From an uncultured Clostridia bacterium (GTDB lineage: Bacteria; Bacillota; Clostridia; TANB77; CAG-508): a stretch of 64,000 nt of DNA. Position 1 is the stretch's first letter; each line of letters opens with the position of its first letter. This document shows, piece by piece, positions 5,783-64,000 of this stretch. The stretch spans positions 20,967-84,966 of the forward strand of contig CAKPNJ010000001.1 in assembly GCA_934168365.1 (NCBI GenBank). The letters are read 5' to 3'. The translations under genes were made by a program, and so were the position numbers. The notes beneath the pieces were generated by a model. That model had not been told where the DNA came from, searched no databases, and saw only the letters and a program-made list of their open reading frames with translations.

Positions 5783-5820
5783 AAAAGTGAAAATTTTAAT
5801 TTTCACTTTTGTTTTGTTTT
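5783..5820 (+). terminator. Rho-independent terminator after pilC
   Basis: aaaagtgaaaatt / aattttcactttt forms a 13-nt perfect inverted repeat followed by gttttgtttt. Confidence 0.75.
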
Positions 5821-5843
5821 TCAATATTATGAAGGAGAAATGT

Positions 5844-20655: not shown

Positions 20656-22449
20656 GTGTTTAATATAGAAGAGGAACTAAAAAAGTTGCCTAGCAAACCA
20701 GGCGTATATATTATGCATGACAAAAATGATAAGATTATATATGTTGGTAAAGCAATTTCTTTAAAAAATAGAGTAAGGCAATATTTTAGAAAAAACAATA
20801 AAACAAAAAGAATTGAAAATATGGTGTCTTTAATAGACCACTTTGAATATATTGTTACAGATAATGAATCAGAGGCACTTATTTTAGAGTGTAACTTAAT
20901 AAAAAAGAATATGCCAAAATTCAATGTTTTATTAAAAGATGACAAAACATACCCATATATTAAAATAAACACAAAATTAGAATTCCCAAACATATACTTA
21001 ACTAGAAGAATACTAAATGATGGTGCAAGATATTTTGGACCATATGCAAATAGTGGCAGTGCAAAAGCAATGCTAGATTTTATAAATTCAAAATATAAAA
21101 TTAGACAATGTAAAACATTTAAATATAAAGGTAGAGCATGTTTAAATTATCATATTAAAAAATGCTCTGGACCTTGTATTGGTAAAATTTCAAAAGAAGA
21201 TTATAGAAAAGAAATAAATCAAATTATTAGCCTATTAGAAGGTAATACAAACCAAATAATGAAAGAGCTTGATAAAGATATTAAAGAAGCGGCAGATAAG
21301 TTGGAGTTTGAGAAAGCGGCAGAGTTAAGAGATAAAAAATATGCTATTCAAAGAATTACAGAAGAAAGACAAAAGGTTTCTAATATATCAGAGCATAATA
21401 TTGATGTAATAGGTATAGCTAAAGGACAAACTCAAGTATGTGTCGAAATATTTTTAATTCGTAATAGTAAAATGATAGAAAGACATCATTACTTTTTTGA
21501 AGGATTACAAGATGAATCAGATGCAGAAATTTTATCAAGTTTTATTAAACAATATTATATAAATGATGTATTTTTACCAAATAAAATTATGATAAAAGAA
21601 GCGATTGAAGATAAAGAAATATTAGAGCAATTGCTTTCAGAAAATTCAAGCCATAAGGTAGAAATAAAAGTACCTCAAAAGGGCGAAAAACTAAGACTAG
21701 TTGAAATGGCAGAAAACAATGCTAAAATTACTATAATGAATAAAGAAAAGGAAAAATATAGCGTTGTGAATGAATTAAAAGAAGTGCTAAAATTAGATAA
21801 ATTGCCTAGAAAAATTGAAGGTTATGATATATCAAATTTATCAGGGCAATTTATGGTTGCTTCAATGTGTGTATTAAAAGATGGAGAGCTAAAAAAGAAC
21901 TTATCAAGAAAATTTAAAATAAAAACAGTAATTAGTCAAGATGACCCTAAATGTATGCAAGAGGTAGTAAAAAGAAGGTTACTTCATTCAATAGATAACC
22001 CAAATGGAGCATTTGGTGACTTCCCAGATATAATATTTGCAGATGGTGGAATTACGCAAATAAGGGCAACTAAACAAGCTATTAAAGAGCTAGGCTTATC
22101 TATACCTGTATATGGAATGGTAAAAGACGATAAACATAGTACTAGGGCACTTATAGACGAGAACAAAAATGAATTTGAACTATCTGAAAATTTAATGAAA
22201 GTAATTACAAATTTTCAAGATAACATACATGATACTGCAATAAATTATCATAGACAATTAAGAGATAAACAAACAACACATTCAGTTTTAGACGAAATAG
22301 ACGGAATAGGAGAAGCAAAGAAAAAAGCTTTATTAAAGAAATTTAAAACTATAAACAACATACAAAATGCTAGTATAGAAGAATTGACAGAGGTATCAGG
22401 AATTACAGAAAAGCTAGCTAAAAGTATAAAGCAGAAATTAAGCGAATAA
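20656..22449 (+). CDS. uvrC: Excinuclease ABC subunit C
   Basis: GIY-YIG (PGVYIMHDKNDKIIYVGKA), a UVR domain (FEKAAELRDK), an endonuclease V-like domain and a C-terminal HhH2. GTG start after aagggggaaa. Confidence 0.95.
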   Translation: MFNIEEELKKLPSKPGVYIMHDKNDKIIYVGKAISLKNRVRQYFRKNNKTKRIENMVSLIDHFEYIVTDNESEALILECNLIKKNMPKFNVLLKDDKTYPYIKINTKLEFPNIYLTRRILNDGARYFGPYANSGSAKAMLDFINSKYKIRQCKTFKYKGRACLNYHIKKCSGPCIGKISKEDYRKEINQIISLLEGNTNQIMKELDKDIKEAADKLEFEKAAELRDKKYAIQRITEERQKVSNISEHNIDVIGIAKGQTQVCVEIFLIRNSKMIERHHYFFEGLQDESDAEILSSFIKQYYINDVFLPNKIMIKEAIEDKEILEQLLSENSSHKVEIKVPQKGEKLRLVEMAENNAKITIMNKEKEKYSVVNELKEVLKLDKLPRKIEGYDISNLSGQFMVASMCVLKDGELKKNLSRKFKIKTVISQDDPKCMQEVVKRRLLHSIDNPNGAFGDFPDIIFADGGITQIRATKQAIKELGLSIPVYGMVKDDKHSTRALIDENKNEFELSENLMKVITNFQDNIHDTAINYHRQLRDKQTTHSVLDEIDGIGEAKKKALLKKFKTINNIQNASIEELTEVSGITEKLAKSIKQKLSE

Positions 22450-31308: not shown

Positions 31309-31815
31309 ATGAATTCAGTAACAGAAATTGTTTGGAAAGATATCAAACAAAATGAAGAACTAGAAGCTATAATTGAAAAAGTAATACAAAAATGTTTTGA
31401 GGTAGAGCATATAAATCCTACCTCTTTATATATTTGTGTTACATTAACAAATCCTAAAAACATACGCGAAATAAATAAAGAATATAGAAATATAGATAAA
31501 GAGACAGATGTACTTTCATTTCCTATGTTTGAAAAAGATGAGTTGGACAAACTTGTTGACGAAACAGCTGACACTCAAGCAGAGACATTACAAGATATAA
31601 TGGGTGACATCATAATTTCTATTGAAAGAGTAGAAGAACAAGCAAAAGAATATGGACATAGTTTTGAAAGAGAATTTGCATATATGCTAGTTCATGGGTT
31701 TTATCACCTAAGAGGTTACGACCATATGGTAGAAGAGGAAAAAGCTCAAATGAGGGCAAAGGAGGAAAATGTTCTTTCTCAATTAAATATAACAAGGGGA
31801 GAGGTTGAAGAATAA
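31309..31815 (+). CDS. ybeY: rRNA maturation endoribonuclease YbeY
   Basis: Zinc motif HGFYHLRGYDH (HxxxHxxGxxH); about 168 aa. Confidence 0.9.
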   Translation: MNSVTEIVWKDIKQNEELEAIIEKVIQKCFEVEHINPTSLYICVTLTNPKNIREINKEYRNIDKETDVLSFPMFEKDELDKLVDETADTQAETLQDIMGDIIISIERVEEQAKEYGHSFEREFAYMLVHGFYHLRGYDHMVEEEKAQMRAKEENVLSQLNITRGEVEE

Positions 31816-52726: not shown

Positions 52727-54454
52727 TTATTTTTCAACTACTGGTGGGATAAAATTCTCAATAGCATCTTTTAATTTAGGGTGATGAATTACAAAATGTA
52801 TAGAAGGACTACTAGCCTTTGAAATCATAACCCATTCCTTTCCACAAAATAGAATTTGTATATTTCTAAAAGTATGGTAACAATTAGTATTTAATTTATA
52901 GTTATCAACTTTTTTCTCATAATTTTTAGTTAGTTTTAAATGTTCTAAATATTCCTCATAATTATAGCAGATTTTGCCTTCATAAAAACTATCTGAAAGA
53001 GAAAGAGTAGGAGGAAATGCCTCAAAATCTTCTTTTGAAAGTTCTGTTATCTCATCTTCAAAAGTATTTTCTTTTAACACCATTTTTATCAATTTTTTCT
53101 GCCCATTGACTGCATTTAATATATTTTCAGTGTCCTGTTTAGAAAGGTTATTACGTTTTAAAATCTTTAAAAGCAACTCTTCTGATATAGTGTGAATTGG
53201 TAAAGAAGACACTATTCTTCTACGAGGGTAATTGATTTTGGCACTTGAAGCCATAAATACAGAAAATGCATTTTTTGATTCTGCTCTATAAATTTCCATA
53301 AGAGGAGTAGCTTTACTAAGTAAGCACTTTGCCTTTTCTTTATAGTATGCAATTTCAGACTTAGAACTTGTTAAATAATATTTTCCTTTATTATGGTATC
53401 CGTTTATACATTCTCCTGTAAGAGCAGCAGCTCCTGAAACATAATTAAAATGGCAGTATATTGAATTTGGAATACCTTTTAGAAAATATGGAGAAACTTG
53501 GCCTGTCATATAAATAGGAATCCAACTTTCTAAACCTAACATCATCTCATTAAAAGGTCTATCTAAGTTATGAATAATATTCAAGTGTAAGCCTTTCTTC
53601 AAAGTCATTGCAATGGCGAACATCCACTTTTTACCGAAATCTACATCTTCAGCCATATCTTCCATAGGCATGTCACTACACATAAAAACAGGTTCTTCTG
53701 ATTTTGAAAAAACTGTAGCTTTAAAAAAGTCTAACTCTCCTTTTTTCATTTCCTCTATACCATAATAATTTTTAGAAGAAGATTTATAAAAAGGTACAAA
53801 AGGAACCTTCATTTCATCAAAGTGAATAGCTTTTATATATTGACCTAAATCAAACTCATCTAAATTTTTAAGAAAATTACTAATAGAATCTAAATCGGGA
53901 GAAGTATTAGTAGAAAACCAACTCTCCAACTTAGATAAATAGTTAGCATCTTTTAAATCTTCAACTTCACAACCAATAAGCAAAGCAATAGTTTCTTTAT
54001 TAGCCTGAGATGTATATTTGGTAACTATAAATTTACAAACAGACTCAATAAAATCTTTTGGTTTTGCTGGGCTTCTATTACCTGTACGAATTTTAGATAA
54101 GAAAGAAGCATCATAACCAATAGAACGAGCTAAATCAGCAACACTAATATTTAAAGCAGAAATTATTTCATTGAAATTTTTACTTAATTGTTCAAAATCA
54201 ATAAATACAGCATTTAAAGTATTAGCTAAATTGTTATAAATTTCATCTTGTGAAACATCAATTTTCTTATCAGTAGCAACAGAATGAAGACCTTTTACTA
54301 ATTGCTCAAGTTGTTTACTTTTTATACTAGGAGTTCTATCTCCATTACGATAACGGCTAACAACTGTAGAAGATAAACCAGATGCTGTTACTAGTTCTTG
54401 AGAAGAACAATCAAATTGTTCTAAATATTTGTTTAATTGTTCACTAAAAGTCAT
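52727..54454 (-). CDS. Large transcriptional regulator with two N-terminal XRE-type HTH domains and an unrecognised roughly 400-aa C-terminal domain
   Basis: HTH 1 is SSQELVTASGLSSTVVSRYRNGDRTPS. HTH 2 is SVADLARSIGYDASFLSKIRTGNRSP. The remainder has no recognised motif. Confidence 0.6.
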   Translation of the reverse strand: MTFSEQLNKYLEQFDCSSQELVTASGLSSTVVSRYRNGDRTPSIKSKQLEQLVKGLHSVATDKKIDVSQDEIYNNLANTLNAVFIDFEQLSKNFNEIISALNISVADLARSIGYDASFLSKIRTGNRSPAKPKDFIESVCKFIVTKYTSQANKETIALLIGCEVEDLKDANYLSKLESWFSTNTSPDLDSISNFLKNLDEFDLGQYIKAIHFDEMKVPFVPFYKSSSKNYYGIEEMKKGELDFFKATVFSKSEEPVFMCSDMPMEDMAEDVDFGKKWMFAIAMTLKKGLHLNIIHNLDRPFNEMMLGLESWIPIYMTGQVSPYFLKGIPNSIYCHFNYVSGAAALTGECINGYHNKGKYYLTSSKSEIAYYKEKAKCLLSKATPLMEIYRAESKNAFSVFMASSAKINYPRRRIVSSLPIHTISEELLLKILKRNNLSKQDTENILNAVNGQKKLIKMVLKENTFEDEITELSKEDFEAFPPTLSLSDSFYEGKICYNYEEYLEHLKLTKNYEKKVDNYKLNTNCYHTFRNIQILFCGKEWVMISKASSPSIHFVIHHPKLKDAIENFIPPVVEK

Positions 54455-63300: not shown

Positions 63301-63671
63301 GGCTTATACTTGCAGATAGTAATATTGTAAGAAAAATGGACACGAATTTAGTATCTGGTAGTTCTAATATTGTTCCAGCATATATAGGCAAAGACGGAGA
63401 GGTTAGTGACAAACCAAATACATTAAATAGAAAGCAATTTGAAAACTTGCAGAATTATATGGAAAAAATCATAAAACAAATTTCAGAAGAAATTTTAAAT
63501 GGAAACATTGGAATTGAACCATATTATAGAACTAGGGATAAGAAAACACCTTGCGAATATTGTAGTTATAAAGCTATTTGCCAATTTAATCAAACTACAA
63601 AAAATAATTATAATTACATACCAAATGTTAATAAGGAAAAGGTTCTGGAAAAAATTTCAAATGTTCGCTAG
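60327..63671 (+). CDS. addB: ATP-dependent helicase/nuclease subunit AddB
   Basis: N-terminal GTSGTGKST Walker A, about 1115 aa, and a C-terminal RecB-like nuclease (IDRLD, IIDYK) with Fe-S cysteines (YQACAFSYY ... CEYCSYKAIC). The TTG at 60327 follows aaaggggagag. Confidence 0.9.
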   Translation: MSIQIVYGTSGTGKSTYIFNQINEQIKQKSPYKIKVITPEQFSYTAEQKLLETSFSQSMISAEVITFARMAYRILGEVGKKTRINLSGSGKAMLIDHILLTENNKFSFLGKSDENVEMISRQLTELKKHQVQLDTLKEVTKNTQDKYLQKKLEDITNLYDLYNNSIQNQYIDENDGLTLLAEELEESNEFKNCDIYIDEFAGFTLQEYEILRKLMRISHKITITICADNLQENTNADIDTFYSNKQTVKRILEIANQEQIEVEKPIFLNTPYRFKTEELQHLAENMASPFYKKYNKPNENLSIFLASNPYSEIENVAIQITKLAKKGYKYEEMAVITKNIDTYSSLCKAIFEQYNIPVFIDEKKDLGSNILVRYVLSLLEIFAKNWSYESVFGYIKTGLLDLDTQEIAVLENYCLKWGIKGSKWYAKEWSFYNETEEQQKQIIYARDKVIEPLLKFKKQLAGLKTVKEITTGLYEFLVQNNIYEKLEQKIEELKQNNELEIAKQYELSIKILTDLFDEIVLVLGNKNITFDRYAKILKMGFNQSDLGTIPATADQVIVGDVDRSRSHKVKAVFIIGLNDGSFPSIQKDEGFLDDKDRNILKEQGIELAKGTIEQIYNDNFNIYKAFTTAEEKLYLSYASSDAEGKSLRASILINKIKRIFPNIKEQSDVIERKSEVLLSKTTFDELLVNLRNFTQGEEIEPIWFDVYNYYQANYKTKLESAIKALQYKNEPEKLKQNKLEKLYGNTLKTSVSRLEQYQACAFSYYLKYGLKLKEKDSFNVEAVDTGNLMHEVIDSFFERLDELNISVKNIEEEQIKQITEDIVEEKLTLKKYDIFNSIPKYRILAQRLKKVITKSMKYIVDSLKYSDFEVLGHELEFKQGGQYEPIIYELKDGKKVEITGKIDRLDIAKTADGNYIRIIDYKSSIKNINLNEVYAGLQLQLLTYLDAACENEEVTPAGALYFNLIDPVLNANPNMTDEEITEELRKQFKMQGLILADSNIVRKMDTNLVSGSSNIVPAYIGKDGEVSDKPNTLNRKQFENLQNYMEKIIKQISEEILNGNIGIEPYYRTRDKKTPCEYCSYKAICQFNQTTKNNYNYIPNVNKEKVLEKISNVR

Positions 63672-63703
63672 ACATTTATGAGTAAATGTTGTACTATATA
63701 ATC

Positions 63704-63735
63704 ATAGGAAATGAAATAAGCAGATGTGGTTTGCC
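63704..63735 (+). repeat. Left arm of an imperfect inverted repeat flanking the small hydrophobic ORF
   Basis: ataggaaatgaaataagcagatgtggtttgcc is preceded by TATAAT (63697..63702). The right arm is ggcaaaccacatttgtggtttttcatttcctat at 63939..63971. Confidence 0.6.
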
Positions 63736-63756
63736 TCCTACAAGGAGGTGAGGCGT

Positions 63757-63879
63757 ATGGTAGAAATACAATCATTAATTGCAACAATATACATATTATA
63801 TTATTCTTTAATTGGAGTAACTATCATTACGTTTACCTTAATTATAGCATTAGTTATAGTTTTGAGTAAACAAAAATAA
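63757..63879 (+). CDS. 40-aa hydrophobic peptide, candidate type I toxin
   Basis: MVEIQSLIATIYILYYSLIGVTIITFTLIIALVIVLSKQK has a single TM helix and a Lys tail. A strong SD ggagg lies 8 nt upstream and can pair with cctcc 5 nt further upstream (cctcc-tacaa-ggagg). Not in the track because it is under 60 aa. Confidence 0.55.
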   Translation: MVEIQSLIATIYILYYSLIGVTIITFTLIIALVIVLSKQK

Positions 63880-63887
63880 ACCAATAA

Positions 63888-63926
63888 AAAACACATCTGT
63901 AATTTGACCGTTGTAGATGTGTTTTT
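63888..63926. terminator. Bidirectional terminator after the small ORF
   Basis: aaaacacatct ... agatgtgtttt forms an 11-bp stem with a 16-nt loop, with A-run and T-run flanks. Confidence 0.6.
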
Positions 63927-63938
63927 CGCATTTTATAT

Positions 63939-63971
63939 GGCAAACCACATTTGTGGTTTTTCATTTCCTAT
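63939..63971 (-). repeat. Right arm of the inverted repeat; on the minus strand it follows a TATAAT box
   Basis: The minus strand reads ttgttaTATAATaataataggaaatgaaaaaccacaaatgtggtttgcc. This mirrors the plus-strand promoter and leader at 63697..63735 and suggests a convergent short transcript. Confidence 0.45.
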
Positions 63972-64000
63972 TATTATTATATAACAAATATTTGACATTT

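Follow-up and report, generated by a model that had tools for sequence, protein, structure and literature searches.

A candidate type I toxin-antitoxin-like cassette next to addB in an uncultured Clostridia bacterium

The question raised by this locus is what to make of a compact unit just behind addB, close to the right-hand edge of a 64,000-nucleotide stretch of DNA from an uncultured Clostridia bacterium (assembly GCA_934168365.1, contig CAKPNJ010000001.1, forward strand, positions 20,967 to 84,966). That whole stretch, referred to here as the window, is AT-rich with 28% G+C, and the addB open reading frame (ORF), 1120 amino acids long, ends at 63671. An initial annotation of the window had proposed a type I toxin-antitoxin-like module or, failing that, a small mobile inverted-repeat element. 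All of the features that it listed are present at the positions given, and none is likely to be there by chance. The answer favored here, at a probability of roughly 60% and on comparative sequence evidence, is that the cassette represents a new family of type I toxin-antitoxin-like modules that has not been described before. New type I families have been found fairly often. What stands of the earlier proposal is a conserved ORF, the predicted closure of its Shine-Dalgarno (SD) sequence, a convergent RNA gene and the coupling of the two; the description "fst-like" does not stand, as the repeats of this cassette are inverted and not direct.

The cassette and its two convergent genes

Comparison with around 130 related loci put the conserved cassette at about 390 bp, as conservation ends some 55–65 nt beyond each of its two inverted arms; the end of the window truncates the right edge, so that the last ~20 bp are missing. 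The relatives came mostly from a search with a DNA pattern of the arm blocks, which returned 120 metagenomic loci, mostly from the human gut, and one IMG/VR contig. Most loci (given L numbers here) were ascertained by the exact arm pattern; L004–L011, L224 and L225 were found via the peptide, and the cassette layout in these is identical. Both arms are present in 57 modules, spaced 261–282 nt apart, and many others are cut by contig ends. An exact 50-mer of the peptide ORF matches three human-gut metagenome-assembled genomes labelled "uncultured Clostridia bacterium". As for chance, a 19-nt inverted arm was reached in none of 300 first-order simulations of a 400-nt region, the counts of the left-arm motif, found in about 120 loci, exceed those of shuffled sequences, and a scan for terminator-like hairpins gave two sites against 0.1 expected. 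Against dinucleotide shuffles, the folding z score of the leader hairpin was −2.6, that of the minus-strand RNA −4.0 and that of the terminator −5.1.

The candidate toxin is the plus-strand ORF at 63757–63879 (ATG at 63757, TAA at 63877–63879), which encodes the 40-residue peptide MVEIQSLIATIYILYYSLIGVTIITFTLIIALVIVLSKQK. Its grand average of hydropathy is 1.63, and AlphaFold2, given a 22-sequence alignment, modelled residues 2–39 as one uninterrupted helix with a predicted local distance difference test score of 94; the peptide is predicted to be a single transmembrane helix. The hydrophobic helix described in the initial annotation has thus held up as a prediction, but the "Lys tail" that went with it is weak, merely SKQK in the window, and the C-terminal polar stub of relatives reads SKSE, CKSK or SK. 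The N-terminus is M-[IV]-E, and the family consensus has neither Pro nor Trp. Close homologues of the peptide number 58, and a profile of the wider family gathered 1405 clusters at 90% identity (E ≤ 1) and 158 clusters at 50% identity (E ≤ 0.001); none of the peptide's clusters has an informative name. At least three subtypes are found, namely A, which includes the window copy (MVEIQ...), B (MIEAVLLEIIYLLLFGLVVETIIVFALIILVIILSK) and C (MVDFLLFLIIGFITSITINVALLTIIYIICTNKE), and the peptides of the family range from 32 to 43 residues, with the changes in length coming in whole codons.

The subtypes diverge at more than 50% of their residues and the ORF is still open. Among the family ORFs the pairwise ratio of nonsynonymous to synonymous substitution rates (dN/dS) is 0.45–0.65, and the entropies at codon positions 1, 2 and 3 are 0.74, 0.48 and 0.79, with position 2 varying least, as would be expected if hydrophobicity is preserved. 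Judged by these patterns of substitution, the peptide ORF is a real gene under purifying selection. The same patterns bear on the idea of a purely structural element, a terminator or insulator acting as RNA or DNA, in which the ORF would be incidental. Strong conserved hairpins at an intergenic site and the high nucleotide conservation of the arms would suit such an element, but an ORF that tolerates only in-frame changes of length across such diverged subtypes, varies with codon periodicity at a dN/dS below 1 and keeps an SD sequence and an AUG in front of it would not, and the idea is barely credible. The loss of the ORF with the hairpins kept, which had been named in advance as the mark of a structural element, is seen in a few decayed copies only.

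The mRNA for the peptide has a probable promoter at 63669–63697 on the plus strand, with the −35 element TAGACA (63669–63674), a 17-nt spacer and the −10 element TACTAT (63692–63697). Across 64 distinct copies, these elements read TAGACA, TTGATT or TTGTTT and TATACT or TATAGT, with a 17-nt spacer and a mean of 9.5 matches to the 12 consensus positions; the gap between the −10 element and ATAGG is usually 7 nt and is 6 nt in the window. The TATAAT box at 63697–63702 that had originally been taken for the promoter is indeed present, but that role is not retained, as it overlaps the TACTAT promoter and has no family-consistent −35 element. The sequence TGTTCGCT precedes cassettes in many unrelated contexts, and the stop codon of addB, TAG at 63669–63671, lies inside the cassette's conserved TGTTCGCTAGACA around the −35 element. 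At 63659–63674 of the window, the last three addB codons and the stop (aat gtt cgc tag) fall within the TGTTCGCTAGACA region. This motif is also found upstream of cassettes in unrelated contexts and, therefore, AddB seems simply to read into the cassette up to the TAG; the C-terminus of AddB is of normal length in comparison with relatives.

Transcription would start near 63704 and, going by the positions of promoter and terminator, give an mRNA of about 228 nt (63704–63931). Its 5' leader is the left arm of the cassette (63704–63735, plus strand), which consists of block 1 (ATAGGAAATGAAA, 63704–63716) and block 2 (CAGATGTGGTTTGCC, 63721–63735). Pairing of CCTCC (63734–63738) with the SD sequence GGAGG (63744–63748), by which the ribosome-binding site would be masked, had been suggested from the first. 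Folding agrees with this and extends the predicted pairing beyond 5 bp to a plus-strand hairpin of −16.1 kcal/mol at 63724–63758, where 63724–63728 pair with 63754–63758 and 63730–63739 with 63743–63752, covering the SD sequence and the first two bases of the AUG. Occlusion of the SD and AUG by block 2 and the bases that follow it was predicted in 54 of the 54 distinct leaders folded. In subtype A, GAUGUGGUUUGCCUCC pairs with GGAGGUGAGGCGUAUG (GCCUCC:GGAGGU), and in subtypes B and C, GCCAC(C/U)U pairs with AGGUGGU, with an extra hairpin inserted in the loop. The closure of the leader is reached, in these predicted folds, by two different pairing solutions. The loop base after CCUCC may be U, A, G or C, and the stem is constant.

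Two further points concern the leader. The segment CAGATGTGGTTT (63721–63732) is complementary over 12 nt, at 92%, to the ascending strand of the terminator, AAAACACATCTG (63887–63899), a strand that is near-invariant across the family, with changes tolerated in the other strand; a long-range or anti-termination pairing may be reflected here. An upstream leader ORF beginning at the AUG of AGGAAAUG was considered and rejected, as its frame and length vary, from MK* in the window to 13 residues or fused frames elsewhere.

Behind the peptide ORF, the bidirectional terminator of the initial annotation was recovered as the hairpin T1 (63887–63926), which is common to both strands and has a stem of ACACATCTG.../...TAGATGTGT, preceded by an A-run and followed by a T-run. 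Terminator stems were compared only for loci with the canonical CACATCTG stem. Compensatory changes are found in the DNA as ACGCATCT/AGATGCG and GACACATC/GATGTGTC, which in the RNA read ACGCAUCU/AGAUGCG in L003 and GACACAUC/GAUGUGUC in L009. On the minus side of T1, the T-tract always has at least 5 T in 8 positions; on the plus side it has 5 in 8 in the window and is poor or absent in some relatives (L009, L011, L072 and L022).

The second gene reads toward the first. The TATAAT box and the near-copy of the leader that had been reported on the opposite strand were found again, the former as the −10 element at 63981–63976 and the latter as the right arm at 63939–63971 (minus strand, ATAGGAAATGAAAAACCACAAATGTGGTTTGCC), an inverted near-copy of the left arm and the 5' part of the antisense RNA. 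The antisense promoter (63976–64000, minus strand) has its −10 element 4 nt before ATAGG and a predicted −35 element at 64005–64000, of which the last base alone is in the window; the window therefore cuts the unit. In L103 and L118, which have the addB context and the flank acaaatatttgacattt continuing as gtcaataag, this promoter reads TTGACA, an 18-nt spacer and TATAAT. All but one of 54 distinct copies match the consensus at 11–12 of 12 positions (TTGACA or TTGACT, a 16–18-nt spacer and TATAAT), and the antisense promoter is predicted to be much stronger than that of the mRNA.

The product, a candidate antitoxin, is a predicted RNA of about 86 nt on the minus strand (63884–63969; −23.1 kcal/mol), the ends at 63969 and 63884 being placed from the promoter and terminator. 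It folds into a single-stranded 5' end, a hairpin 1 (63959–63953 with 63948–63942), an AU-rich linker and T1. The 51 distinct versions, 82–92 nt long, have this one two-hairpin architecture, with AAACCAC/GUGGUUU in hairpin 1. In the window, the antisense RNA and the mRNA are complementary from about 63884 to 63931, and cofolding gave a perfect 48-bp 3' duplex with the leader hairpin closed. By eye, AAACCACA, from the 5' strand of hairpin 1, is complementary to UGUGGUUU in the mRNA leader over no more than 8 bp, and RNAduplex applied to the mRNA leader and the antisense RNA found no clearly localised interaction. A peptide encoded in the antisense RNA was also considered and dropped, as frames and lengths are not conserved.

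Inverted repeats around a segment of ~240 bp, with inward promoters of unequal strength, are also what an invertible, phase-variable segment would look like, where flipping swaps the weak or the strong promoter in front of the peptide gene, and arms that are alike within each module are what gene conversion would yield. In around 120 assembled loci, however, the strong promoter (4-nt gap) always goes with the antisense arm and the weak one (6–7-nt gap) with the mRNA arm. No clear flipped copies were seen in shared contexts, in consensus assemblies where minor subpopulations are invisible, and no recombinase gene is linked to the cassette. An inverting segment is thus highly improbable.

Distribution, coupling and decay

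A search of relatives for further copies and for empty sites, as had been recommended, proved productive on both counts, with around 130 loci and an empty junction. The sample holds about 42–50 different flanking contexts, with at least 40 distinct genomic contexts. The cassette follows addB in the window and in L001, L003, L103 and L118, and it follows spo0A in L004–L010. The empty site is found in L136/L137 (L136, 4816–4840; AddB 62% identical), where the addB stop is followed 20 nt on by a PgeF-like gene. Two copies each are present in L028 and L132, and in L003 two copies fall within 2.3 kb, the second of them diverged and located 2.1 kb downstream of the first (minus strand, 1–470), after an LD-carboxypeptidase gene, with the peptide MSLILFLVIALMTSITINVALLTILYIKYVNMIIDKE, its own variant arms and a convergent TTGACA–TATAAT promoter. 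The overall distribution looks selfish and accessory, in the manner of an insertion.

In L225 (1–509) the cassette comes directly after a gene for a TraG/VirD4-type coupling protein of a type IV secretion system, and in L012 (84–7990), from IMG/VR, it is located ~2 kb beyond genes for a siphovirus tail protein, an amidase and a serine recombinase, near the integrase end of what looks like a prophage. Going by such neighbours, some copies ride on mobile elements. Three IMG/VR contigs carry a copy. A scan of viral contigs with TATAATNNNNATAGGAAATG gave 86 loci, of which only two are family members, and BLASTN of the cassette against phage and plasmid collections found no match. Rfam, run on the region at permissive thresholds, returned sub-threshold terminator-like noise only. 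The 64-kb window holds no further copies, and a hidden Markov model of the peptide finds one only. Matches to ATAGGAAATGAAA at 31514–31526 and 53744–53756 (minus) have no partner arm, promoter or peptide ORF and were put down to chance; the first falls in coding sequence, on the opposite strand.

The two genes of the cassette stay together. Sufficient downstream sequence was available for 72 distinct intact ORFs, and 65 of these have the convergent promoter, the arm and the T-run in strict form, with five more having variant arms. The antisense gene is absent only from L017 and L024, and in these two loci of different subtypes (L017, ~870–1100; L024, minus strand) a common sequence, aaccacacgtaaaacgtgtggtttgttcttagcctagaaggctttt..., possibly the terminus of a different repeated or mobile element, takes the place of the terminator and antisense gene. 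That sequence drew no hit in Rfam, and the ORFs next to it belong to unrelated housekeeping genes. In the other direction, six remnants (L032, L049, L061, L064, L083 and L123) have kept the antisense gene with the ORF destroyed. At one orthologous locus, six contigs are intact and two are decayed. In L032, the ribosome site and 26 codons are deleted between GTTTGCC copies in the leader and the ORF, and the RNA gene is kept; in L122, the 3' end of the ORF, the terminator and the body of the RNA are lost in a single deletion. The ORF can be lost alone and the RNA gene is lost only with the ORF, which is the asymmetry predicted for a toxin-antitoxin pair, although the events are few.

The GTTTGCC repeat is found in the leader and in the ORF codons for a conserved F-A-L, at 63729–63735 and 63833–63839 (GTTTACC) in the window; the L032 deletion lies at 5798–5830, as compared with L020/L030. 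In the long transcript, RNAalifold pairs the ORF-internal copy of this type with the SD sequence.

This pattern of loss has to be set against a quite different view of the peptide as a small membrane protein that does no harm and might, for instance, modulate a transporter, a sensor or a spore-related membrane complex, its synthesis being tuned by a cis-antisense RNA and with no toxin module involved. The anatomy expected of such a gene is identical to that of a toxin module, the charged tail is weak, there is no likeness to known toxins, and many copies adjoin spo0A in sporulating Clostridia. The loss of the ORF with the RNA gene kept, and the near absence of the converse, is instead the pattern of a harmful product, and a patchy spread over many contexts, with several copies in some genomes, an empty site in a relative and copies beside conjugation and prophage genes, does not sit well with a harmless resident. 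Nor does an antisense promoter far stronger than that of the mRNA. A benign membrane protein is on balance rather unlikely.

The second proposal of the initial annotation, a small mobile inverted-repeat element, is not borne out. Such a non-autonomous element, like a miniature inverted-repeat transposable element, would have the arms as terminal repeats for a transposase acting in trans and the ORF and hairpins as cargo. Inverted arms of ~33 nt, the dozens of contexts with an empty site, and L224, where a 27-nt direct repeat is found on both flanks, would be in keeping with this. The arms, however, are internal, with conserved promoters reaching ~55–65 nt outside each of them, and flanking direct repeats average 8.8 nt against 8.6 nt in mismatched controls, which leaves no target-site duplications beyond chance. 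The arms have roles as RNA, as block 2 closes the ribosome site and forms hairpin 1, no transposase is associated with the cassette, and there is a single copy in the 64-kb window. Taken together, these points make a transposable element of this kind very unlikely. The repeat in L224, TGTCAATACTTTTTTCAAACTTCCTA, flanks the cassette at 420–447 and 823–849, and its right copy includes the antisense −35 element; a repeat of this type was not seen at other loci, and it may stem from a former tandem neighbour and not from a target-site duplication.

The inverted arms and read-through transcripts

The arms match at 63698–63716/63959–63977 (19 nt, 95%) and at 63721–63735/63939–63953 (15 nt, 93%). As the repeats are inverted, both RNAs carry identical and not complementary 5' sequence, and there is no pairing between them at that end. 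When the left and right arms were aligned for 60 distinct modules, those of canonical modules differed at few positions, and in diverged modules a change in one arm is matched in the other. As block 1, L224 has ATAGAAAACA on both sides and L225 has AGAAAATGAGAAA on both, and variants of block 2 are, at least in part, common to both arms in L132 copy 2, L149, L028 copy 1 and L003 copy 2. Two convergent RNAs with identical, co-evolving 5' leaders are, as far as these alignments go, an unusual architecture. Gene conversion between close inverted repeats remains as a neutral alternative for the co-variation.

Where the left and right arms do differ, nearly all of the positions have G or T in the left arm and A or C in the right. 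These become G·U pairs in a plus-strand RNA with both arms and A·C mismatches in the minus-strand equivalent. For 39 read-through sequences, RNAalifold placed the arms in 25-pair helices with 5 of 975 cells broken, and the variation in the arms is all one-sided and pair-preserving. A plus-strand transcript that reads through T1 also contains the complement of the right arm, with which its 5' arm can form helices of 10–13 bp and 16 bp. The right arm itself has a weak terminator-like hairpin on the plus strand (63942–63959), and this hairpin, the gaps in the T1 tract and the site between addB and pgeF suggest that plus-strand RNAs spanning both arms exist. Such read-through would be obligatory where T1 has no plus-strand T-tract and is likely in the window. 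Read-through toward pgeF is plausible because in a relative only 20 nt separate the genes that the cassette splits.

These observations suggest, short of proof, that a read-through transcript could form a long 5'–3' fold-back. Because block 2 is G/U-rich, transitions in the right arm are bound to leave a wobble pair, which weakens the case, as do the constraint on the left arm in its own right and the ascertainment by an exact arm pattern. A fold-back of this sort had been raised in the initial annotation, and it is compatible with the data, with some support from the RNAalifold helices and the G·U bias, but no consistent change in the accessibility of the ribosome site came with it. The predicted accessibility from SD to AUG was 0.09–0.31 in the short mRNA and 0.11–0.33 in the long form, and with antisense RNA it was back at the short-form values. 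The proposal that the antisense RNA displaces the 5' arm and so closes the ribosome site was dropped, as folding alone lends it no support, with no consistent opening and, in the window, a change in the wrong direction.

It is still conceivable, if rather doubtful, that the arms are a working part of the control circuit, in which the plus-strand read-through RNA would fold 5' to 3' and the antisense RNA, by mimicking the 5' arm, would compete for or displace the fold-back in addition to forming the 3' duplex. To our knowledge, there is no described precedent for type I control by identical rather than complementary 5' ends.

Proposed mechanism, known type I systems and the addB junction

On the type I toxin-antitoxin-like reading, a weak sigma-A-type promoter would give the ~228-nt mRNA for the 40-residue membrane peptide. 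This mRNA would be born translationally closed because block 2 of the leader (GAUGUGGUUUGCCUCC) pairs with the SD sequence and the start codon. The much stronger convergent promoter would give the ~86-nt RNA, ending at the common hairpin terminator, and this RNA would bind the final ~48 nt of the mRNA, the complementary terminator loops probably making the first contact. Analogy with RatA/txpA and SR4/bsrG suggests that pairing would expose the mRNA to cleavage specific for double strands, followed by decay, and that the leader hairpin would keep any surviving mRNA untranslated. The peptide would be made only once the short RNA runs out, and its insertion in the membrane would lead to arrest or death. 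Sequence and comparison establish the parts, their conservation and coupling, the patchy spread that resembles insertion and the way in which copies decay; the transcript ends, RNA–RNA pairing in vivo, the nuclease step and toxicity are all inferred.

A small, hydrophobic, conserved ORF and a small RNA gene complementary to its mRNA, the generic signs of a type I system, are both found at the sequence level, and the anatomy fits the hallmarks given for Gram-positive type I systems (PMC6563280). Several points weigh against this reading. The peptide had no match in profile searches of Pfam, NCBIfam, PHROGs, PADLOC and PDB, and the charged tail that is typical of many type I toxins is minimal here (SKQK, SKSE or SK). 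The complementarity of mRNA and antisense RNA is short, at ~48 nt, and consists of the terminator alone. The identical 5' arms, which are the most conserved non-coding feature, are not explained by a mechanism based on 3' overlap, and their conservation is partly an effect of ascertainment, because most loci were retrieved by the arm pattern.

The par system of the Enterococcus faecalis plasmid pAD1, of the Fst-Ldr type, has convergent promoters, a common bidirectional terminator, a 5' stem-loop that hides the SD sequence of fst and repeats at the 5' ends (PMC7472228). The cassette is alike in its convergent promoters, in a short RNA and a ~230-nt toxin mRNA that have one bidirectional terminator between them, in the 5' stem-loop over the SD sequence (predicted here) and in the repeats at both 5' ends. 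The terminator stem-loops of the two RNAs are therefore complementary, as in par. Its one-helix peptide also resembles the par toxins, which are 30–40 amino acids long. In par, however, DRa and DRb are direct repeats, which makes the RNAs complementary in these stretches and lets RNA II cover the start site (PMC7472228), whereas the repeats of the cassette are inverted. Its RNA is ~86 nt long against ~40 nt for that of par, and neither PXXXG(C) nor the Trp that, together with a charged tail, mark the hydrophobic Fst toxins is found in its peptide, which has no Pfam or NCBIfam hit. Membership of the par/Fst family is ruled out by the inverted repeats and the absent Fst toxin signature; the cassette would appear to work somewhat like par and is not, by these features, a member.

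With bsrG/SR4 and txpA/RatA of Bacillus subtilis, the cassette has in common a convergent RNA, in the cassette a candidate antitoxin, that would pair with the 3' end of the toxin mRNA and an SD helix that would limit translation, although that helix is weak in the B. subtilis systems. The first contact of SR4 with bsrG is made via the SR4 terminator loop, and, once bound at the 3' end, SR4 both favours decay of the mRNA and strengthens the helix over the SD sequence (PMC3834814). In the cassette, the predicted SD helix is already 9–10 bp long and includes the AUG without antisense RNA, and, unlike in bsrG/SR4, folding gave no antisense-dependent change at the ribosome site. The overlap is ~75 nt in txpA/RatA and 123 nt in bsrG/SR4, against ~48 nt, the terminator alone, in the cassette. 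There is no sequence similarity in toxin or RNA, and searches of the Pfam, NCBIfam and PDB profiles gave no TxpA or BsrG homology for the peptide, even though the 3' overlap is present. The B. subtilis systems lack the duplicated promoter and leader of the cassette.

In Clostridioides difficile, CD2517.1-RCd8, CD2907.1-RCd9, CD0956.2-RCd10 and relatives are likewise convergent overlapping genes in Clostridia. Their toxins are membrane peptides of 34–59 amino acids, with several copies per genome, some in prophages (PMC6563280), and the cassette, too, has at least two copies in one genome and is found on three IMG/VR contigs. At the sequence level these systems show no similarity to the cassette. 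Their toxins end in a Lys-rich region and their promoters are often SigB-dependent, in contrast to the tail of 2–4 residues and the SigA-type-looking promoters of the cassette, and no CRISPR association of the cassette was seen. As for hok/sok, the 5' and 3' ends of the full-length toxin mRNA pair and Sok targets the hok 5' leader. The predicted 5'–3' pairing of the read-through RNA would likewise enclose the ORF; the peptide has no similarity to Hok, and the antisense RNA of the cassette would pair with the 3' end of the mRNA instead.

Should the peptide prove toxic and the small RNA protective, the cassette would stand for a large type I family in commensal gut Clostridia that are uncultured, with no fewer than 158 clusters at 50% identity and 40 or more insertion contexts, whose copies are at present annotated as "hypothetical" or not called at all. 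The validated Clostridia type I systems listed in a 2019 review are those of C. difficile only (PMC6563280). The identical, co-varying 5' arms raise the question of how convergent RNAs that start alike might regulate one another. Compact and portable, and equipped with promoters, a terminator, a regulator RNA and a closed ribosome site, the cassette could serve in counter-selection or in RNA devices. Other type I systems have been used in this way.

The site itself is also of interest. The initial annotation had expected addA directly after addB, and in relatives a Cu-oxidase_4/PgeF-like gene followed by an LD-carboxypeptidase gene is found there instead. In the cassette-free relative, addB and pgeF look like an operon from their spacing. 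The cassette splits this junction, which is tight in that relative, and may affect the expression of the downstream cell-wall genes. No convincing plus-strand promoter was seen before pgeF in L003 or L103, and pgeF may depend on read-through across the cassette with its bidirectional terminator. A second copy like that of L003 would be expected ~2.1 kb past the end of the window. In the closest cassette-free AddB relative (76% identity; L133, 4890–5311, and L134), a different insert follows addB, with inverted repeats of ~25 nt (ttctttaaggtttatacttaaagaaaa...) and a short prepilin-like ORF (MLKNKGITLIALVV...).

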